Source: Bacteroidales bacterium
GTDB lineage: Bacteria; Bacteroidota; Bacteroidia; Bacteroidales; F082
DNA: 64,000 bases
Assembly: GCA_030690365.1 (NCBI GenBank)
Contig: JAUYGX010000142.1
Location: forward strand, 12,888 to 76,887
Reading direction: 5' to 3'
Below the pieces are notes generated by a model that saw only the letters and a program-made list of their open reading frames with translations, had not been told where the DNA came from and made no database searches. Shown in pieces: positions 39,040 through 49,082 of the stretch (its first letter is position 1; every line of letters begins with the position of its first letter). The translations under genes and the position numbers were made by a program.

Positions 39040-39543
39040 CTAGAGGAATTCGGTTTTTAGCTTTTCGACCCAGTTTTTAATCCGATCATCGCTTAATTCT
39101 TCCTGGTTGTGATCGTCCAAAGCAAGGCCTGAAAATTGCCCGTCTTTATCAGCGAGGCTAAAATAATACTTGTATCCGTCCACAGGCCAAAACCCAACCA
39201 CACACGATTTTTCAGGAAGGCGGCAATACAATGTTCCCAGTCCGTCGACGAAACTTTCGGGATATTCCTTTTGATCTCCCTGACCAAAAAGGGCCACTTT
39301 ACGGTCGCTGTAATCCAGTGTTGACAAGCGATCGATGGTCATTTCCCATTCATCCTGCATCTCGCCAATACCCCAAGCAGAGGTACCAAAAATCAGGTTC
39401 GAAAATGGTTTCATATCTTCAACAGTGGCCGTTTTTAAATTAAATACGCTGGCTACATCCTTACCAAAAGCATGCTGTATTTTGATTGCTGACTTCTCCG
39501 TCATCCCGGATGTTGAGCCAAAAAATATTCCTACGGGTTTCAT
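39040..39543 (-). CDS. fldA: Long-chain flavodoxin
   Basis: The start is taken at the ATG giving MKPVGIFFGSTSGMTEKSA (FMN phosphate loop). Also has SAWGIGEMQDEW, FGQGDQKEYPESF and WPVDGY. Length is 167 aa. Confidence 0.9.
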   Translation of the reverse strand: MKPVGIFFGSTSGMTEKSAIKIQHAFGKDVASVFNLKTATVEDMKPFSNLIFGTSAWGIGEMQDEWEMTIDRLSTLDYSDRKVALFGQGDQKEYPESFVDGLGTLYCRLPEKSCVVGFWPVDGYKYYFSLADKDGQFSGLALDDHNQEELSDDRIKNWVEKLKTEFL

Positions 39544-39581
39544 CAATTTCAATTATTTGGATTAAATATAAATTACATCGG

Positions 39582-40124: not shown

Positions 40125-41399
40125 ATGAAGAAAAAAGCCATCATACTTGTCATCGTACTCACTTCAATGTCGTTAACCGGAATTATATTCACACAGGTTT
40201 ATTGGGTAAATACAGCTTTGCGATTGAAGGAAGATCAATTTGACAACAGCGTCCGATTAGCCATCAAAAGTGTTGTGAACCAATTACTTCAAAATAAAAA
40301 CGACACACTTTTCCAACATAAGCTTAATGTCTTGAGGTGTCGCAGGTCGCGCCTGGATGTGTTCGATTATATTGAGCCACACATGCTCGATTCGTTGATG
40401 AACGATGAAATGAAATGCATGAAAATCAATAGTAAATATTATTTCGCCGTATATAATAAGGTAAACAACCGGTTTGCCATTGGGCCGTATATTTCGCATG
40501 AACAAGCATTGCTAACTTCTCCTTATCAATTTTCGGTTTCCAGCATTTACCGTCCGGGCGACTATACCCTGTCGGTTTACTTTCCGAGCAAAACTGCCAT
40601 TATCATTAAAATGGTCAGTTATTGGCTCATTTTCTCAGTACTCTTTTTAGTGGTTCTGATTTATAGCTTTATTTATGTTATCATGAAAATTCTGGAACAG
40701 AAAAAACTGTCTGAACTCAAAAACGACTTCATCAACAACATGACCCATGAATTTAAAACGCCTATCACTACTGCCTCGCTGGCTGCTGAAATGATTCTGC
40801 GCGAAGAGGTGATGAGCCATCCAAACCGGATTAAAAAATACGCAGGTATTATTCTGGATGAAAACAGCCGGTTGCAGAACCAGATCGAACAGGTACTCCA
40901 GGTGGCTACCATAGAACAGGAAGGCCCCCGGTTTAAAATGAAAAAAACCAATGCCCACTATTTATTGGAGTCGGTGATCGAGAGTTTTGAACTGCGTATA
41001 AAAGAAAGTCATGCCCGGATTTCTGTTGATTTAAGGGCCGCTAAACCAACGGTGATGGCCGACAAATTTCACCTCTTAAATGTTTTTTATAATCTGCTCG
41101 ACAACTCCTTAAAATATACACCAAATGACCCGTTTATCGAAATCAGCACCTGGAATCAGGGTGATCAGCTGGTGATCAGGTTTAAGGACAATGGAATAGG
41201 CATCAGCCACGAGCATCAGAAGAATATTTTTAAAAGCCTTTTTCGTGTACCTACCGGAAATATCCACGAAGTACACGGTTTTGGACTTGGTTTGTACTAT
41301 GTTAAAACCGTGATTGAAGAACACAATGGCCACATTGTTTTAAAAAGTGAACCCGGCAAAGGGTCCGCCTTCGACATCTATTTAATGATAAACGAATAA
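40125..41399 (+). CDS. Sensor histidine kinase
   Basis: 424 aa. Two TM helices flank an extracytoplasmic domain of about 140 aa. Has the H-box NMTHEFKTPIT, the N-box LLDNSLKYTP, and the G-boxes DNGIGIS and GFGLGLYYV. Confidence 0.9.
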   Translation: MKKKAIILVIVLTSMSLTGIIFTQVYWVNTALRLKEDQFDNSVRLAIKSVVNQLLQNKNDTLFQHKLNVLRCRRSRLDVFDYIEPHMLDSLMNDEMKCMKINSKYYFAVYNKVNNRFAIGPYISHEQALLTSPYQFSVSSIYRPGDYTLSVYFPSKTAIIIKMVSYWLIFSVLFLVVLIYSFIYVIMKILEQKKLSELKNDFINNMTHEFKTPITTASLAAEMILREEVMSHPNRIKKYAGIILDENSRLQNQIEQVLQVATIEQEGPRFKMKKTNAHYLLESVIESFELRIKESHARISVDLRAAKPTVMADKFHLLNVFYNLLDNSLKYTPNDPFIEISTWNQGDQLVIRFKDNGIGISHEHQKNIFKSLFRVPTGNIHEVHGFGLGLYYVKTVIEEHNGHIVLKSEPGKGSAFDIYLMINE

Positions 41400-41403
41400 T
41401 AAA

Positions 41404-42117
41404 ATGGAAGAAAAAACACCTCCTGCAAACATCCTGTTCGTTGAAGACGACTCAAACCTCAGCATGATCCTGCGAGATTATCTGGAGATGATCGGTTATA
41501 CCGTCATCCATGCCAGCGATGGCGAAGAAGGGCTGGCTCAATTTTCTTCTGAGAAATTCGACCTGGTTATCCTCGATATCATGATGCCTAAAAAAGATGG
41601 GTTTACACTGGCCAGCGAAATCAGATCGAAAAATAGTCAGGTACCTATCATTTTTCTTACGGCAAAAAATATGAAAGAAGACCGCATTAAAGGTTTTCAG
41701 CATGGCTGCGACGATTATATTACAAAGCCATTTAGTACTGAGGAACTTAGCTTGCGGATAAAAGCCATATTGAAAAGGTGTAGTGTAGCCGACTCACAAC
41801 CACAACACGATACCACCACGCAATTCTCCATTGGTCATTTTACATTCGACAGTGTAAATCTGGTTCTGAATTCACCTGCCGGCGAACGCAGGCTCACCCG
41901 CAAAGAAGCCAGTTTACTTAAACTATTGTGCTTAAACAAAAACACCTTGCTGTCGAGGGAAGTGGTATTGGAAACTGTGTGGGGCGAAAACGATTACTTT
42001 ATCGGACGCAGCATGGATGTGTTTATTACCAAACTGCGCAAATATTTAAAATCCGACTCCGGTGTAAAAATTATTAATGTACACGGAATCGGATTTAAAC
42101 TGGAAGTAAGCAATTAA
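41404..42117 (+). CDS. OmpR/PhoB-type response regulator
   Basis: 237 aa. Receiver domain (ILFVEDDSNLS...DLVILDIMMPKKDG...LTAK) plus a winged-helix domain (LTRKEASLLKLL...VWGENDYFIGRSMDVFITKLRKYL...GIGFKL). Confidence 0.9.
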   Translation: MEEKTPPANILFVEDDSNLSMILRDYLEMIGYTVIHASDGEEGLAQFSSEKFDLVILDIMMPKKDGFTLASEIRSKNSQVPIIFLTAKNMKEDRIKGFQHGCDDYITKPFSTEELSLRIKAILKRCSVADSQPQHDTTTQFSIGHFTFDSVNLVLNSPAGERRLTRKEASLLKLLCLNKNTLLSREVVLETVWGENDYFIGRSMDVFITKLRKYLKSDSGVKIINVHGIGFKLEVSN

Positions 42118-43582: not shown

Positions 43583-45004
43583 ATGTTTAACAAAGAAATT
43601 TATATCACCAGAAGAAAAAAGTTAAGAAATGAAATCAAATCGGGTATAGGCCTGTTTTTAGGGAATGTTGACGTGGCGTTTAATTATCCGGCTAACACGT
43701 ATTCTTTCAGGCAGGACAGTCATTTCTTATATTTCTTTGGGCTTAATCATCCCGGTTTTGCCGGAGTGATCGATTTCGACAGCAACACCGATCTGGTATT
43801 CGCGAATGATGTTGATATTGAAGATATTATTTGGATGGGAAATCAGCCTGCTGTGAAAGATATGGCTGCTGAAGCAGGAATCGGGCATACAGCTCCTTAC
43901 GGAGAATTGGCTGGTTATTTAAAATCAGCGATCAGTCAGGGTAAAAGCATTCATTTTCTCCCGGCCTACCGGGGCGAAACCATGGTGGAACTTTCGAAGT
44001 TACTGAACCTGAATATCGATAAGTTAAAAAGCGAAGCTTCCGTTGAACTGATTAAAGCGGTGGTAAAACTGAAGGAAATTAAGGAAGAAGTTGAAATTGC
44101 CGAAATAAAAAAAGCCATCGACATCGCCTATCTGATGCACACCACTTCCATGAAAATGGCCAAACCGGGTATGGTAGAACAGGAAATTGCCGGAACCATC
44201 GAAGGAATTTCGCTGGCATTGGGCGGACCTGTTTCATTTCCGATTATCCTGAGCCAGGACGGTCAAACACTTCACAACCATTGCCACGACAAGGTGCTGA
44301 CGGAAGGTCGTATGATGGTAACCGATGCCGGTGCAGAAACCCAGGAAGGCTATTGCAGCGACATTACCCGGACTGTGCCTGTTGGCGGAAAATTTAACAA
44401 ACGCCAGGCCGGAATTTATCAAACCGTATTGGATGCCAATGTAAAGGCCATCGCAGCCATCAAACCCGGAATAAAATACCGAGATGTTCATTTTTTGGCC
44501 TGCCGCACTATTGTGGATGGACTGAAAAAGCTTGGATTAATGAAAGGTGATACACAGGCAGCGGTTGATGCCAGGGCCCACACCTTGTTTATGCCTCACG
44601 GTCTGGGTCATATGATGGGTATGGATGTCCACGACATGGAAGGTTTAGGCGAAAATCATGTGGGTTACGACGAAAATACCACCAGAGCCACTGAGTTTGG
44701 CAACGCCTACCTGCGGTTGGGCAAAGAATTGAGACCAGGCATGGTACTCACGGTGGAGCCAGGCATTTACTTTATCCCGGCTTTGATAGATCAATACCGC
44801 AAGGAAGGCACTTTTGACGAATTTATCAATTTCGATTTGGTTGAAACCTACAAGGACTTTGGCGGAATCCGCATTGAAGACGACGTGCTGGTAACCGAAA
44901 ACAGCCACCGTGTATTGGGAAAACCAATTCCAAAAACCATTGCAGAAATTGAGAAAACCATGGCCGAACCAAGAGAATGGATCAAATGGGAAGGGTTTAT
45001 ATAA
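43583..45004 (+). CDS. Xaa-Pro aminopeptidase (M24B)
   Basis: 473 aa. Pita-bread metal ligands are present: VTDAGAE..GYCSDITRT, HGLGHMMGMDVHD, EPGIYF, IRIEDDVLVT. Confidence 0.9.
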   Translation: MFNKEIYITRRKKLRNEIKSGIGLFLGNVDVAFNYPANTYSFRQDSHFLYFFGLNHPGFAGVIDFDSNTDLVFANDVDIEDIIWMGNQPAVKDMAAEAGIGHTAPYGELAGYLKSAISQGKSIHFLPAYRGETMVELSKLLNLNIDKLKSEASVELIKAVVKLKEIKEEVEIAEIKKAIDIAYLMHTTSMKMAKPGMVEQEIAGTIEGISLALGGPVSFPIILSQDGQTLHNHCHDKVLTEGRMMVTDAGAETQEGYCSDITRTVPVGGKFNKRQAGIYQTVLDANVKAIAAIKPGIKYRDVHFLACRTIVDGLKKLGLMKGDTQAAVDARAHTLFMPHGLGHMMGMDVHDMEGLGENHVGYDENTTRATEFGNAYLRLGKELRPGMVLTVEPGIYFIPALIDQYRKEGTFDEFINFDLVETYKDFGGIRIEDDVLVTENSHRVLGKPIPKTIAEIEKTMAEPREWIKWEGFI

Positions 45005-45034
45005 CCTTGGTCGAGTAGATAATTCACGTAAAAA

Positions 45035-45071
45035 ACGGTATTCTGATGTTTTGGAATACCGTTTTTATTTT
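45035..45071 (+). terminator. Rho-independent terminator after the aminopeptidase gene
   Basis: acggtattc-(10-nt loop)-gaataccgt forms a 9-bp stem and is followed by ttttatttt. Confidence 0.8.
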
Positions 45072-45191
45072 GCTATCAAATACCAGTTGTAAAATGAACC
45101 TTCACTACAAGTTTATTGATTAAACCTTAAAACTTGCACAAAATACAACTTTTAATGATTTCAATGAATGGATCAGATTAAAAGAGAATTA

Positions 45192-45962
45192 CTAAAATTG
45201 TTCTTTCCTTTCCACCGCATATCCCAGAAATAACTTCTGAGCCATCATCTCCTGAACGAATGCTATCATGTTGATTAATAACGGATGTTGATCCGATAAT
45301 GCGAACTGAAGTTTAAGTCCGGCAGCTATGTCGGACAAGGAAAGTTGTTCATGGGCAATATTTTCAAAAGTAAAAGTGTCCAGGGCCGACAGGTCGGCAA
45401 AAAGTACTTCTCTGGTTTCAGGATGCCGATACACCATCATAAAATAATCTCCCGGATGGTTTTTGGCTTCCTCCACAGCATATAAATGAACCGGGTAACG
45501 GAGCGGAATCAGGCGGTATTCCAGATTCACAACAATCGTCCCGTTCCTAATATCTCCCTGAAGAGTAAATGGTTCTGCTTCTATGTCCGGCATTGTATAT
45601 ACTTCAATTTCAATCCATTCAAAATAAAGCAGATCATTTAACCAGGGCTTGCCCCATAAAGTGGCGTAATCCTTTTCTTTCACGAAAGTGACAAATTCAG
45701 CCGGCAACTTCCAGATTTGGGTTGTTTTAGCATCGTGATTGGCAAAAAACAGATTTATCAGTTCATTCCATTCATCATCCGGCAATACCTGACGTGAAAT
45801 CGGGAAAGCCTGCACCATGGTATTGTTGATGTTGTTCCTGAGCAGTCTGCGGTATTGGCGCAATCCTTCTTCTGTAGCGCCCGGAATAAAGGTATCGTTT
45901 CCGGTCCGTCCGAACCGAGACAAATCCTGCTCTATTTTATAAGTATCAGGCTGGTACAACAT
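45192..45962 (-). CDS. DUF2063-type partner protein (HvfC/BufC/MbnC-like RiPP maturation chaperone)
   Basis: 256 aa. The N-terminal pattern is YRRLLRNNINNTMVQAFPISRQVLPDDEWNELINLFFANHDAKTTQIWKLPAEFVTFV, which is typical of DUF2063. The start overlaps the upstream DUF692 gene by 17 nt. Confidence 0.75.
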   Translation of the reverse strand: MLYQPDTYKIEQDLSRFGRTGNDTFIPGATEEGLRQYRRLLRNNINNTMVQAFPISRQVLPDDEWNELINLFFANHDAKTTQIWKLPAEFVTFVKEKDYATLWGKPWLNDLLYFEWIEIEVYTMPDIEAEPFTLQGDIRNGTIVVNLEYRLIPLRYPVHLYAVEEAKNHPGDYFMMVYRHPETREVLFADLSALDTFTFENIAHEQLSLSDIAAGLKLQFALSDQHPLLINMIAFVQEMMAQKLFLGYAVERKEQF

Positions 45963-46794
45963 CTTTTATCCAGTATTTATGGACTATTGAACGTAGTTGA
46001 TTCATTTCGTGGTTGAGCATCCTGATTTCAGGAAAGTTAAAATCCCTTTCGAGCAACACCGGAACAGGCTTAAGTTTTGCCACCGTGAAGTCAAACAGAT
46101 CGTAAACAGGATCAATAATGGCTTCGCCATGGGTATCGACAATCAGCGTGGGGGAAACTTGCTCATGACCTGCCATGTGAATGTAAGCCACCCGATCGAG
46201 CGGCATGTCTGAAATAAATTCGTATGGATCATAATGGTGGTTGAAAGCATTGACATACACATTGTTCACATCCAACAAGAGGTTGCATCCCGATTGCGAA
46301 ACAATTTGGTTGATAAATTCAGATTCGGTCATTTGAGCGGCCACTGGCGTGTAGTACGAAACATTTTCGATGGCAATAGGCATTTCCAAAAAATCCTGAA
46401 CCTGTTTTATGCGGGCTACCACATGCTTCACGCTGTCGTCCCGAAAAGGAATGGGCAACAAATCATACAAGTGCGCATTATCCATCTTTGCAAACGATAA
46501 ATGCTCGGAATAAACCCTGACATCATGTTCTGCAATAAAATTCTTTATCTGTCGGAGAAAATCAAAATCCAGTTCATCCGGACTACCAATGGACAATGAA
46601 AGCCCATGTAGAAAAATCGGAAAACAGCGGCTGATCTCCTTAAACTGAGCACCCCAATAACCTCCCATATTGATCCAGTTTTCGGGTGCCACCTCAACAA
46701 AGTCGGGGATAATTTCATTGGTCTTCAGGAATGCATCCGCGATATCGCGTCTGAATCCCATACCGATGTTACTTATGTTTTTCCGTAGGTTCAT
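45946..46794 (-). CDS. DUF692 / MNIO-family (MbnB-like multinuclear non-heme iron oxidative) peptide maturase
   Basis: 282 aa. Contains GMGFRRDI, DFVEVAPENW, IFLHGLSLSIGS, VYSEHLSF, DLLPIPF, IAIENVSYY, CNLLLDVNNVYVNAFNHHYDP, IHMAGH, VDTHGE and LLERDFNFP, the conserved DUF692 TIM-barrel metal-ligand blocks. Confidence 0.9.
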   Translation of the reverse strand: MNLRKNISNIGMGFRRDIADAFLKTNEIIPDFVEVAPENWINMGGYWGAQFKEISRCFPIFLHGLSLSIGSPDELDFDFLRQIKNFIAEHDVRVYSEHLSFAKMDNAHLYDLLPIPFRDDSVKHVVARIKQVQDFLEMPIAIENVSYYTPVAAQMTESEFINQIVSQSGCNLLLDVNNVYVNAFNHHYDPYEFISDMPLDRVAYIHMAGHEQVSPTLIVDTHGEAIIDPVYDLFDFTVAKLKPVPVLLERDFNFPEIRMLNHEMNQLRSIVHKYWIKDVVPA

Positions 46795-46808
46795 GTGATT
46801 AAAAATTC

Positions 46809-46849
46809 ACAATCGAATTGGCAGCACTTTAACCTGCCAATTCGATTGT
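46809..46849 (-). terminator. 16-bp perfect hairpin between precursor and maturase genes (attenuator / leaky terminator or RNA stabiliser)
   Basis: acaatcgaattggcag (46809..46824), 9-nt loop, ctgccaattcgattgt (46834..46849). On the minus-strand RNA the stem is followed by GAAUUUUUAAUCAC and then the maturase AUG. Confidence 0.65.
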
Positions 46850-46868
46850 TTGATGAAAAGCGATGTGA

Positions 46869-47276
46869 TTAAGAAACCCCACATTTACCTTCACCACATT
46901 TGGCTTCGGTGGTTTTGGTGGTTTCTTCCTTCTTTTCGGTTTTGGTTTCGGTGGTTTTTGCGGCCTTGCCTTCACCGCACTTTCCTTCACCACACTTAGC
47001 TTCTACAGCCTTCCCCTCTTTCTTTTCTACTTTCGCTTCCTTTTTTGTTTCCTTTTTAGTTTCCTCTGGTTTGGCTTCACCACATTTCATTTCAAAAACA
47101 TTTAAAGGCGAAAAGTTAATATTCAGATCGATGATCTGGCCGCGAAGTTCAGCTCCATTGCCAAGCACCTGGCTGGTAGAAGGACGTGCATTTAAATTTG
47201 TTCCTGCAAATGTCACCAAAGCTCCTGCAAGTAAACTGCTGGCAACGATACTGGTAGTTTTCAGTCTTTTTTCCAT
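46869..47276 (-). CDS. RiPP precursor candidate (HvfA/MovA-like, repeated K-C-G / CGEGKCG motifs)
   Basis: The start is taken at MEKRLKTTSIVASSLLAGALVTFAGTNLNA (Sec signal). The remainder is K/E/T-rich with 5 Cys, all in K-C-G context: EMKCGEAK, EAKCGEGKCGEGK, EAKCGEGKCGVS-stop. It lies directly upstream of the DUF692 and DUF2063 genes. Confidence 0.75.
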   Translation of the reverse strand: MEKRLKTTSIVASSLLAGALVTFAGTNLNARPSTSQVLGNGAELRGQIIDLNINFSPLNVFEMKCGEAKPEETKKETKKEAKVEKKEGKAVEAKCGEGKCGEGKAAKTTETKTEKKEETTKTTEAKCGEGKCGVS

Positions 47277-47321
47277 GATATTAGTAATTAAGTAAGATAA
47301 AATTGTATCACCCATTTTGAC

Positions 47322-47335
47322 GTGGATCTATCCAC
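47322..47335. promoter_or_regulatory. 14-bp palindrome GTGGATCTATCCAC upstream of the precursor gene (candidate operator)
   Basis: 6-bp perfect arms with a 2-nt spacer, 46 nt upstream of the ATG at 47276. Confidence 0.3.
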
Positions 47336-47367
47336 ATCCTTACATCATCACGAAAGAAAAACTTAAA

Positions 47368-47532
47368 TTAATTTTTATTCAGCTGTTTTTCAACAACTTC
47401 GGCGAGTCGCATTTTTTGATCCTCTGTCAGTTTCCAGGTCAGGTTTTTGGCCTCAATAGAACCCATTTGGACAAGATGTGAATTGACTATGTGCGATTGC
47501 TTTAGGTAGTGCCTACAGAATTCGCAGACCAT
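47368..47532 (-). CDS. Small ORF with an HxxxCxxC (zf-HC2-like) motif at its extreme N-terminus
   Basis: The 54-aa ORF reads MVCEFCRHYLKQSHIVNSHLVQMGSIEAKNLTWKLTEDQKMRLAEVVEKQLNKN. The in-frame upstream codons read ..LKLHL, so a TTG start would include the His. It is absent from the 60-aa ORF track. It sits between the pepA terminator and the precursor gene. Confidence 0.35.
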   Translation of the reverse strand: MVCEFCRHYLKQSHIVNSHLVQMGSIEAKNLTWKLTEDQKMRLAEVVEKQLNKN

Positions 47533-47596
47533 CAAATGCAATTTTAACTGCGTCCTTTTGAGGCAGGAGTTAATTCCATTTTACAGTTGGTTAATG

Positions 47597-47632
47597 GATA
47601 AAATAGCTCAACCGCCACAACATGCGGTTGAG
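47597..47632 (-). terminator. Terminator after pepA
   Basis: ctcaaccgc / gcggttgag forms a 9-bp stem with an 8-nt loop, 13 nt after the pepA stop. On the minus strand it is followed by CUAUUUUAUC. Confidence 0.6.
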
Positions 47633-47645
47633 ACCGCGACCAGTA

Positions 47646-49082
47646 TTACTGTACCTTTGATTGAATAAAATCAAACAAAAGACGCACACCTACTCCGGTG
47701 CCGCCAATGGGTTTATAACTATCGCGTTTGGTAATAAAAGCAGGGCCTGCAATATCCAGATGGATGTATGGGTAATCAGTAAAATGCTCCAGGAATTTGG
47801 CGGCAGTGATGGCTCCGGCATCGGCTCCGCCAACATTTTTTAAATCGGCCACCTCAGATTTCAGCATGTCTTTATATTCGTCCCACATAGGAAACTCAAC
47901 TATGCGCTCATGAACCAGATCGCCAGATTTTTTCAATAAATCAAATTCCTGATCCGACTTTGATTTCATACCCACCATGGCTATAGTCCCGATGGCGCGT
48001 GAGGCAGATCCGGTAAGTGTTGCCATATCAATCACCAGTTCAGGATTGTAGTTTTTGGCATAACTCAGGGCATCGGCCAAAATCATGCGACCCTCGGCAT
48101 CTGTATTCAGGACTTCCACCGTGGTTCCGTCGTGCATAATCACCACATCACCAGGGGCATACGCATTTCCATCCGGACGGTTATCGGTGGCAGGAATCAA
48201 AGCTACCACATACACCGGCAATTTTGCCTGAGCAATGGCATGAATGGCTGCCGCTACCGCCGCACCACCGGCCATGTCGCATTTCATGGTATCCATGAAA
48301 TTTGTTGGTTTCAGGCTAAGCCCTCCGGTATCGTACACAACTCCTTTGCCAACAAACACATATGGCTTTTCGTTGATTGCATTTTCGGGTTTCCATTCTA
48401 CAATAGTAAAAGTCGGTGGATTGGTACTTCCACGGTTTACCGCCAACAAACCTCCCATTTTAAGGGATTCTATTTTGCTTTTATGAAGAACCTCCACTTT
48501 GGCACCACTGATCTCACCTCTGGCCCTGATTTCCTCAGAAAGCTGTTCCGCTGTGAGATAGCTATCAGGTTCGTTAACCAAATCACGTGCGAAGCAAACC
48601 GCCTCTGTTTGAACCTTTAGATAATCCAGATCAGCATCCTCTATGTCAGGCATATAAACATCCACCTGGCTCAGGCTATTTTGGATTTTGCTCGCATCCC
48701 CTTTATATTTCAAAAATTGATAATTCCCAAGAATCAGGCCTTCTATAAAGGCAAGTACTTCTTCCTTAAAAGCATTAATGGGTATGATTACAACCCGCTC
48801 AATCTGAGCTTTCTTAATCATATGCTGGGTGGCATTGCCATTTTTTCGCCAAGTTTCCAACCTTATTTCGCGGGTTCCAAGCAAATCACCATATACCACA
48901 TAGGCCAGATTTTTATATCGGTTCAATTCAACAACTTTGTGTTTTAAACGGTGTTGTTTTCTCACAAAATCGACTTCATCTTCATTCAGCGAGGCTTCTT
49001 TTAAATCGGTTCCGGCTTTTATCAGGTATATGACATTGGCTGCTGTTGGTTTTCGCAGACCCTTTCGTATTAATATATTCAT
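47646..49082 (-). CDS. pepA: Leucyl aminopeptidase (M17)
   Basis: 478 aa. Contains VGKGVVYDTGGLSLKP, MKCDMAGGAAV, NTDAEGRMILADAL and ATLTGS, the M17 signature. Confidence 0.95.
   Translation of the reverse strand: MNILIRKGLRKPTAANVIYLIKAGTDLKEASLNEDEVDFVRKQHRLKHKVVELNRYKNLAYVVYGDLLGTREIRLETWRKNGNATQHMIKKAQIERVVIIPINAFKEEVLAFIEGLILGNYQFLKYKGDASKIQNSLSQVDVYMPDIEDADLDYLKVQTEAVCFARDLVNEPDSYLTAEQLSEEIRARGEISGAKVEVLHKSKIESLKMGGLLAVNRGSTNPPTFTIVEWKPENAINEKPYVFVGKGVVYDTGGLSLKPTNFMDTMKCDMAGGAAVAAAIHAIAQAKLPVYVVALIPATDNRPDGNAYAPGDVVIMHDGTTVEVLNTDAEGRMILADALSYAKNYNPELVIDMATLTGSASRAIGTIAMVGMKSKSDQEFDLLKKSGDLVHERIVEFPMWDEYKDMLKSEVADLKNVGGADAGAITAAKFLEHFTDYPYIHLDIAGPAFITKRDSYKPIGGTGVGVRLLFDFIQSKVQ

Follow-up and report, generated by a model that had tools for sequence, protein, structure and literature searches.

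Does the group of three small, tightly packed genes on contig JAUYGX010000142.1 of a Bacteroidales genome (assembly GCA_030690365.1) encode a working copper-peptide pathway, and what drives its transcription if the regulator genes that accompany it in related genomes are gone? We analyzed a 64-kb stretch of this contig, referred to here as the window, in which all genes of the operon lie on the minus strand. They are a precursor gene (46869-47276), a gene for a multinuclear non-heme iron oxidase (MNIO, 45946-46794) and a gene for its DUF2063/HvfC-type partner (45192-45962). Our analysis identifies the locus as a genuine operon predicted to encode a Sec-exported, multi-core peptide made by ribosomes and modified after translation (RiPP), of the HvfA type, with Lys-Cys-Gly (K-C-G) cores, together with an MNIO and a DUF2063 protein. 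We consider it highly probable that this is a working, minimal, ABC-only system of the HvfABC/oxazolin/'captophorin' kind (Lys-Cys, EGKCG-type), in the version that is common in Bacteroidota and their relatives of the Fibrobacterota-Chlorobiota-Bacteroidota (FCB) group. The sole unusual trait of this HvfABC-type locus is the deletion of its own regulator genes. An earlier, sequence-only reading of the same DNA had described three co-directional packed genes, a 135-aa Sec precursor with five K-C-G cysteines, a 17-nt gene overlap, a hairpin, a small open reading frame (ORF) and flanking peptidase genes, and all of these are present. The novelty it saw in the locus was overstated, as curated NCBIfam models and several hundred relatives among species-representative genomes exist.

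The precursor gene codes for 135 amino acids plus a stop. Its longest ORF (46869-47315) would give 148 amino acids, and the 135-aa form begins at the ATG at 47276 (MEKRLK...), which matches the equivalent ME[KN]K start in every close and distant homologue and lies 3' of the predicted promoter. Codons 1-30 (47187-47276, minus strand) specify a putative signal peptide, MEKRLKTTSIVASSLLAGALVTFAGTNLNA followed by RP, with a charged n-region (K3, R4 and K6), a hydrophobic core at approximately residues 9-24 (Kyte-Doolittle ~1.7) and a polar c-region that ends in the site NLNA/RP. The A/RP junction is retained in the closest precursor homologues, the signal pattern is kept across 54 homologues, and cleavage is predicted by rule after Ala30. 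The peptide has no lipobox. Behind the signal lies the motif LGNGAELR (47142-47165), found through homologue conservation and with the family consensus LGxGxE[VL]R; its residues G39, G41 and R45 each reach a conservation of 90% or more across the 54 homologues, and a regular expression for the consensus matched the precursor of every recovered locus except one. The five cysteines (residues 65, 95, 100, 127 and 132, in the contexts MKCGE, AKCGE, GKCGE, AKCGE and GKCGV) form three core patches. The first, EMKCGE (47076-47093), holds the single Cys65, which is invariant in the 54 homologues. The second, AKCGEGKCGEGK (46965-47000, Cys95 and Cys100), matches the AEGKCGEGKCG repeat that HvfBC modifies at both cysteines (PMC11252979). 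The third, AKCGEGKCGVS (46872-46904, Cys127 and Cys132), is the C-terminal end, a doublet with 90% or higher conservation across the family. The composition behind Cys65 is 27% K, 23% E and 14% T.

No Pfam domain was found in the precursor, which is recognized by NCBIfam only. It passes the HvfA-family 'KCGExKCG_twice' domain of RiPP metallophores (NF050137, 26.5 bits against a cutoff of 19.5) and fails the full-length H. influenzae HvfA equivalog (NF050188, 21 bits against 95), to which only the C-terminal repeat region aligns. Its homologues comprise 281 protein clusters, and 49 of the 54 database homologues match the HvfA-family domain. It aligns with the characterized FonA and HvfA across the KCGEGKCG doublets. 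The LGxG core of its post-signal motif recurs in FonA of Fontimonas (DLGAGY, a partial match) but not in H. influenzae HvfA. The precursors of the related loci and the 54 homologues are built on a common plan. The signal peptide is followed by LGxGxE[VL]R, which is almost invariant, and some 20 residues further on by an invariant Cys in E-x-K-C-G; then come K-rich spacers and at least one KCGEGKCG doublet, the final one usually a few residues from the C-terminus. The spacers of the window precursor measure 29 and 26 residues, compared with ~8-10 in HvfA and FonA, and are typical for its own subgroup. Many of the homologues are annotated by the Joint Genome Institute (JGI) as 'uncharacterized low-complexity protein', and H. 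influenzae HvfA itself is assigned to COG3767; the JGI label is presumably the name of that COG. The precursor is not a low-complexity artefact, because 76 of 78 related loci retain a K-C-G ORF, and its HvfA-type character, proposed earlier, is borne out by NF050137. We regard it, from its conservation, as real and unexceptional within its clade.

The MNIO (hvfB-like, 282 aa) matches Pfam PF05114 (MbnB_TglH_ChrH) at 333.6 bits and passes the NCBIfam HvfB family NF003818 (381.2 bits, cutoff 360), while it stays below the cutoffs of BufB (NF050167, 269.9 against 310), MbnB (TIGR04159, 45.4 against 325), ChrH (68.8 against 600) and ApyH. The closest solved structure is PDB 3BWW, a DUF692 protein of Histophilus somni (E = 7e-76), which has been described in the literature as 72% identical to HvfB. 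An alignment with 21 relatives shows no variation at residues H63, H98, E143, D175, N177, N178, H206, H210, D220, H222 and E249. Two of them, D220 and H222, sit in a DTH motif whose HvfB counterpart holds the site-3 ligands D242 and H244, both essential for HvfB activity; the others we take to be metal ligands as in MbnB structures. The earlier assignment of the DUF692 protein as an MNIO with its metal ligands agrees with both family models and with the invariance of these residues. The assignment of the partner (hvfC-like, PME type 1, 256 aa) as a DUF2063 protein is borne out by PF09836 (50.1 bits) and PF22106 (31.5 bits), both above cutoff and representing both halves of the DUF2063/HvfC fold. 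Its best NCBIfam match is HvfC, at 117.5 bits, below the equivalog cutoff of 142. The partner start overlaps the MNIO stop by 17 nt, and overlapping starts are also seen in two related loci (L002 and L004). Because NF050137 and the HvfB model are passed and the full-length HvfA equivalog is failed, we place the cluster in the HvfABC family but do not treat it as an orthologue of the Haemophilus operon.

How common such loci are was judged from the best 80 of 530 relatives, one genome per species, counting for each feature only loci with enough flanking DNA; ORFs were called in these loci and searched with hidden Markov models (HMMs) built from the loci themselves. MNIO homologues as such number in the thousands. 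The top 120 are 62-96% identical to the window protein, and the named ones come from Bacteroidota metagenome-assembled genomes (MAGs); the nearest records are 94-96% identical, with the subsurface or groundwater MAGs HGW-Bacteroidetes-16, GWF2_41_31 and CG18 (94-95%) as the closest three. Among the cultured carriers are Prolixibacter bellariivorans, Chitinophaga skermanii, C. polysaccharea, Carboxylicivirga sediminis and Brumimicrobium mesophilum. The best 80 relatives belong to Bacteroidota, Ignavibacteriota or Chlorobiota, save for a few bins with doubtful labels. The labels of L065 and L030 ('uncultured Akkermansia sp.' and 'MAG: Chitinophaga pinensis') are implausible for the clade, which suggests mis-binned or mislabelled MAG contigs.

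Across these loci, a K-C-G precursor stands directly 5' of the MNIO gene (76 of 78) and HvfC is present in 71 of 72. An intact extracytoplasmic function (ECF) sigma gene and a ~90-aa ORF lie upstream in 51 of 72 (71%), and a DoxX gene lies downstream in 50 of 67. The usual FCB layout is thus ECF sigma, anti-sigma, precursor, MNIO, HvfC and DoxX. No DoxX was detected in the window at E <= 1 with HMMs from the related loci; a terminator and a convergent M24 peptidase gene stand 3' of hvfC instead. DoxX is also missing 3' of hvfC in three related loci, L005, L006 and L007, and a fourth, L001, stops within the MNIO gene and was left out of this judgement. The missing DoxX, which had been taken for a departure from the textbook layout, is in fact shared with 17 of the 67 loci. 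A 2025 survey, in which the family was named Buf_EGKCG/oxazolin and given ~2,000 members 'mostly' in Pseudomonadota, describes clusters with precursor, MNIO, DUF2063 and DoxX genes 'in various combinations' (PMC12452194). What sets the group apart is the layout seen across the FCB loci, together with its promoter and precursor motif, and the repeated loss of the sigma/anti-sigma module.

The ~90-aa ORFs that follow the ECF sigma gene carry the pattern C-X25-H-X3-C-X2-C, and motif spacing and gene context identify them as probable anti-sigma factors of the zinc-binding anti-sigma (ZAS) type, in which the motif is as defined in PMC7907618; the Pfam zf-HC2 match of these full-length proteins is weak and sub-threshold (15.1 bits, cutoff 22.2). 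An HMM of these ORFs matches the small ORF upstream of the window precursor (47368-47541, minus strand) with E = 4.7e-17, over the C-terminal ~57 residues only. What had been viewed as an extra HxxxCxxC component of the cluster is accordingly a truncated remnant of a ZAS-type anti-sigma gene, its C-terminal ~57 codons, with HxxxCxxC (HLMVCEFC) kept and the N-terminal Cys ligand and helix lost. Its NCBIfam anti-sigma match is weak (17.7 bits). Of the full ZAS signature (C/H-X23-26-H-X3-C-X2-C, paired with an ECF sigma factor) only H-X3-C-X2-C is left.

A four-way alignment places the deletion junction, AATTAAC/TCCTG, at 47564-47569 (minus strand), with ~620 bp missing relative to L006. Lost with this segment were the ECF sigma gene in its entirety and the 5' half of its anti-sigma neighbour. 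L005 has the identical junction. L006 has an intact sigma gene (184 aa, with regions 2 and 4) and an intact anti-sigma gene, and it holds a copy of TCCTG at each edge of the segment that is deleted in the window. L007 and L001 have a different, internal deletion of ~247 bp, in the region compared with 47541-47600 of the window; it makes the ECF sigma gene's 3' part run into the anti-sigma gene. The module was thus lost by two independent events in one genus-level clade. Searches of the 64-kb window with HMMs from the related loci returned no cognate sigma factor at E <= 1. Near the 5' end of the sigma frame of L007 and L001, a TGA stands where L006 has TGG.

A predicted ECF-sigma-type promoter, TGTAAGG-N16-CGTCA (47318-47344, minus strand), lies ~40 nt 5' of the precursor start codon. 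The motif TGTAAG[G/T]-N16-CG[A/T]C[T] precedes the precursor in 56 of 75 species-level loci, at a median of 42 nt before the start codon, and the chance expectation is 0.017 per 130-nt upstream region. Its spacer is exactly 16 nt in 56 of 56 loci, with a search pattern that permitted 15-19. The strict form has one match only in the window, and a 42-nt block around it is 100% identical in the window, L005, L006 and L007, with the flanking intergenic bases varying. Of the 54 loci that have a sigma gene next to the cluster, 46 carry the motif, as do 10 of the 21 that lack one. Its two-block shape and fixed spacing resemble ECF-type promoters, and we infer that it would be read by the cluster's own sigma factor where that factor exists. 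Autoregulation of the sigma gene was excluded, as the motif lies upstream of 1 of 59 sigma genes. A scan with the sigma-70 consensus, which is not suited to Bacteroidota promoters, gave 8 sites against 6.6 expected. Several further observations concern the promoter. Loci without the motif (e.g., L009, L012, L049, L054-L056, L066, L067, L077, L078 and L084) mostly lack an adjacent sigma gene too, and may use another promoter or regulator; the precursors of L009 and L012 have GSCG/GTCG cores in place of GKCG. A perfect palindrome, GTGGAT-AG-ATCCAC (47322-47335, minus strand), occupies most of the 16-nt spacer, with no difference between the window and L005, L006 or L007. A repressor might use it as an operator, or it could be due to chance. 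Short inverted repeats are present, inconsistently, in the promoter spacer of some distant loci.

The function proposed for the product follows from characterized relatives. HvfA (oxazolin) of nontypeable H. influenzae is exported by Sec; its AEGKCGEGKCG repeats contain six cysteines, which HvfB and HvfC oxidize to give a product that binds Cu(I) (PMC11252979). By homology, the modified peptide of the window would be exported by the Sec route and cut after Ala30, and the resulting Lys-rich product of ~105 residues would bind Cu(I) in the periplasm and protect the cell against metal or oxidative stress. The same biosynthesis might instead serve a purpose other than copper buffering, either a response to oxidative or hypochlorite stress or the handling of another thiophilic metal. 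This is unlikely, yet it is the alternative that survives best. Related loci come with an ECF sigma factor and with a ZAS-type anti-sigma factor that would sense thiol or redox state; in H. influenzae, the ECF sigma factor RpoE2, which is under an anti-sigma factor with the ZAS motif, has the operon in its regulon and mediates its induction by HOCl (PMC7907618). No copper-resistance or other copper-related genes were seen among the neighbours examined, and metal specificity is regarded as unresolved by the authors of PMC13097082. Against this, copper is bound by every characterized member (oxazolin, fontiphorin, gonophorin and the bufferins), and bufferins also give protection from copper stress (PMC11252979, PMC13097082, PMC12452194). 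Copper binding in the periplasm is thus the function that we favor for the product.

For a copper-binding product to be made, the operon must still be expressed, and the loss of the sigma module raises the question of decay. An ECF-type promoter left unserved by the deletion would make the three genes silent remnants of an orphan operon. Such decay would fit the ~620-bp deletion, which took away the sigma gene along with half of its anti-sigma neighbour, the lack of any sigma factor of that family in the window, the second, independent deletion in the same module of the sister genomes L007 and L001, and the absence of DoxX from the clade as well. We compared the window, L005, L006, L007 and L001 by pairwise Nei-Gojobori ratios of non-synonymous to synonymous substitution rates (dN/dS). 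The anti-sigma stump has values of 0.19-1.06, and the relaxed constraint that its upper value indicates is also in line with decay. But the three core ORFs are all intact, and their ratios are low: 0.08-0.26 for the MNIO, 0.07-0.19 for HvfC and 0.02-0.23 for the precursor. Low ratios also hold between the two genomes that have the deletion in common: window and L005 differ by 12 synonymous and 1 non-synonymous changes in the precursor, and dN/dS of the MNIO is 0.14. Since the deletion junction is common to both, their divergence (dS ~0.15) post-dates the loss of the sigma gene. Moreover, the promoter block is perfectly conserved among variable intergenic bases, and the ten loci that keep the promoter motif without an adjacent sigma gene are consistent with service by an unlinked sigma factor, so that supply in trans seems common. 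Decay is therefore quite improbable, and the core genes have been under purifying selection since the adjacent regulator was lost.

Continued selection would imply that the operon is expressed through a sigma factor encoded elsewhere. Transcription would then start from the ECF-sigma-type promoter TGTAAGG-N16-CGTC, and the dependence on an unlinked factor would arise because the ECF sigma and zinc-binding anti-sigma genes, the cognate regulators, were removed by the ~620-bp deletion. More tentatively, and with clearly less confidence, we suggest that the operon of this groundwater Bacteroidota lineage was uncoupled from its ECF sigma/ZAS switch and captured by another, unlinked sigma factor or by a repressor acting at GTGGAT-AG-ATCCAC, and that LGxGxE[VL]R might be a recognition or processing element not yet described for this RiPP class.

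Between precursor and enzyme genes stands a terminator-like structure (46798-46849, minus strand), a stem-loop (46809-46849) followed by GAATTTTTAAT, which we read as a probable partial terminator. The stem is perfect over 16 bp with a 9-nt loop, its folding energy is -25.8 kcal/mol (z = -5.55; 0 of 200 shuffles were as stable), and a T5 run comes after it. This hairpin, like the long K/E/T spacers of the precursor, had been noted as an oddity, and both prove to be family-wide. The intergenic stretch 3' of the precursor stop is more stable than shuffled sequence (z < -2) in 77% of 78 distinct loci, with a median z of -3.2; at that site most of the folds read by eye are a GC-rich stem-loop and then a T-run, in sequences that are unrelated between loci. 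Attenuation at the hairpin and T-run would pass part of the transcripts into the two enzyme genes and would thereby give a high ratio of precursor to enzyme, a reading that draws on general knowledge of RiPP operons. At the other end, a palindromic A-run/T-run hairpin with a 16-pair stem and a T-run was found by terminator scan in the gap between the hvfC-like gene and the convergent M24 gene (45031-45066), and it is likely a bidirectional terminator that closes the operon. For a known RNA element in the leader or the hairpin, a scan of 44800-47800 against Rfam had no hit at E <= 1.

In the cytoplasm, the iron-dependent HvfB-like MNIO and its obligatory DUF2063/HvfC partner would oxidize K-C-G cysteines to 5-thiooxazoles, by analogy with HvfBC, FonBC and NgoBC, which put 5-thiooxazoles on EGKCG motifs to give products that bind copper (PMC13097082; bioRxiv 10.64898/2026.06.05.730506; PMC11252979). 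This modification would be a four-electron oxidation of -4 Da per Cys. The four cysteines of the two KCGEGKCG doublets are its confident predicted targets, and the invariant single Cys65 is a possible fifth. Modification of this unpaired Cys is uncertain, since in vitro FonBC needed a substrate with two repeats (PMC13097082). The 5-thiooxazole was established in a 2026 study which named the wider class captophorins, characterized FonABC and re-examined HvfABC and NgoABC (PMC13097082), and the authors of the original HvfA work have likewise reassigned its structure (bioRxiv 10.64898/2026.06.05.730506 and 10.64898/2026.07.17.739211). That the cysteines become methanobactin-like oxazolone/thioamide pairs, as the sequence-only reading had it, as HvfA was originally assigned (PMC11252979) and as NCBIfam model names still say, is very improbable and, for the HvfB subfamily, outdated: the two products are alike in mass change (-4 Da) and in absorbance near 302 nm, but two groups have reassigned the HvfBC product to 5-thiooxazole by alkylation-assisted nuclear magnetic resonance, with the same result for FonBC and NgoBC (PMC13097082; bioRxiv 10.64898/2026.06.05.730506), the window MNIO scores 381 bits on the HvfB model versus 45 on MbnB, and its partner is DUF2063 (PME1), not MbnC.

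Several points weigh against a working HvfABC-type system with 5-thiooxazole chemistry. With 117.5 bits, the HvfC-like protein does not reach the NCBIfam equivalog cutoff of 142, and the precursor fails the full-length HvfA equivalog (21 versus 95 bits), so that substrate rules could differ. The signal peptide was assigned by rule. For the Bacteroidota members in general, expression, modification and metal binding are predictions from homology. Finally, the cognate sigma gene is lost and the HMM search found no sigma factor of that family in the 64-kb window, so that transcription is only predicted.

The closest likeness is to HvfABC(X)/oxazolin, with which the locus shares a Sec precursor with AxKCGEGKCG doublets, an HvfB-family MNIO, a DUF2063 partner with its RiPP recognition element (RRE) and a precursor gene ahead of the enzyme genes (PMC11252979; bioRxiv 10.64898/2026.06.05.730506), as well as regulation of the family through an ECF sigma factor paired with a small ZAS anti-sigma factor. 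It differs in having no DoxX (HvfX) gene. The N-region of its precursor is unrelated to that of HvfA, with LGxGxExR in place of the C38-C43 disulfide region; two doublets and one single Cys are present compared with three doublets, and the spacers are 26-29 residues long, whereas those of HvfA have ~8. The regulator genes are adjacent in FCB relatives, unlinked in Haemophilus and deleted in the window. FonABC/fontiphorin of Fontimonas thermophila, of the Lys-Cys captophorins, resembles the locus in its signal peptide, short LGxG motif and K-rich spacers with EGKCG repeats, and in an MNIO and PME1 pair, with no other tailoring enzymes, from which a 5-thiooxazole metallophore would be expected (PMC13097082). 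However, the survey behind that class centered on Pseudomonadota whereas the window locus is from the FCB group, its spacers are longer, and its first Cys is a conserved E-x-K-C-G singlet.

The Neisseria sigma-E/MseR operon with DUF692 and DUF2063 genes (gonophorin, NgoABC) has an ECF sigma factor and a ZAS anti-sigma factor beside the MNIO cluster, as do 51 of the 72 FCB loci (PMC2893595, PMC13097082), while in the window that module is deleted and only the 3' stump of the anti-sigma gene remains. In addition, some Neisseria precursors are lipoproteins (PMC13056109), unlike the window precursor with its missing lipobox. Bufferins (BufABC, with DUF2282 or Buf_6-12Cys precursors) have a closely related MNIO clade, a PME1 partner, Sec-exported precursors, 5-thiooxazole chemistry and copper binding (PMC11626156, PMC12452194), but the window MNIO lies under the BufB cutoff, and its precursor has no DUF2282 and is a Lys-Cys repeat peptide, not one of the folded Cys-Lys type. 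With methanobactin (MbnABC) the locus has in common the MNIO fold and, by analogy, a four-electron Cys oxidation that yields a copper ligand; it differs in the MbnB score (45 bits against 325), in having neither MbnC nor a leader-type precursor, in predicted Sec export instead of a dedicated transporter, and in that the methanobactin product is an oxazolone/thioamide. Chryseobasin (ChrHI) of Chryseobacterium comes from the same phylum and involves the same enzyme superfamily and a secreted precursor, but the MNIO is of another subfamily, the chemistry is that of a macrocycle and hydantoin, and partner and precursor are different (PMC13056109).

No experimentally characterized HvfB-type system from Bacteroidota was found in the literature searched. 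The earlier statement that no member from this phylum had been characterized holds for the HvfB type in that literature but not for MNIO-dependent RiPPs as such, given the chryseobasins (PMC13056109). The one trace met in that literature is Table S2 of PMC12452194, which lists for Cytophaga hutchinsonii one DUF692 and one DUF2063 protein, an adjacent DoxX and zero recognized precursors; either Bacteroidota precursors are missed by the Buf_EGKCG profile, or they are unannotated as genes in RefSeq. The thiooxazole copper-peptide class, so far studied only in Pseudomonadota pathogens and one thermophile, is extended here to Bacteroidota, Ignavibacteriota and Chlorobiota. In these phyla it is common, with a conserved layout of its own, a fixed-geometry promoter, a hairpin behind the precursor gene and the LGxGxExR motif. 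Cultured carriers in Prolixibacter, Chitinophaga, Carboxylicivirga and Brumimicrobium would permit direct tests, and the window is a natural regulator-deletion variant. Our understanding of the family is unchanged, and the value of these results is incremental: better annotation, and a starting point in a new phylum.

The genes that flank the operon are an M17 aminopeptidase gene (47646-49082, minus strand, the same strand as the operon) and an M24 peptidase gene (43583-45004, convergent to the operon). Membership of these aminopeptidases in the cluster, which had been listed among its oddities, was excluded: they flank it only in L001 and L005-L007, the nearest relatives of the window, and in none of the other loci, and they are best read as neighbours by descent. 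Other neighbours are genes for a beta-lactamase-fold protein, a two-component system, a flavodoxin, a TonB-dependent receptor, a protein with a type IX secretion sorting domain and KdtA, which is ordinary Bacteroidota content. The histidine kinase and OmpR-type response regulator pair (40125-42117, plus strand) and the flavodoxin gene (39040-39552, minus strand) lie 3-6 kb past the end of hvfC; no link of either to the operon was found, and no test was aimed at such a link. A GC-rich, terminator-like hairpin, CTCAACCGC...GCGGTTGAG, lies 3' of the M17 gene (47607-47632, minus strand). Some 45 nt past the M17 stop (within 47570-47645) diverge strongly between the window and L005-L007, with coding sequence and downstream spacer on either side ~90% identical, which looks like a small local replacement. 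Far from the operon, the G+C content of positions 1-2000 is 0.34, compared with 0.37-0.46 in the rest of the window.

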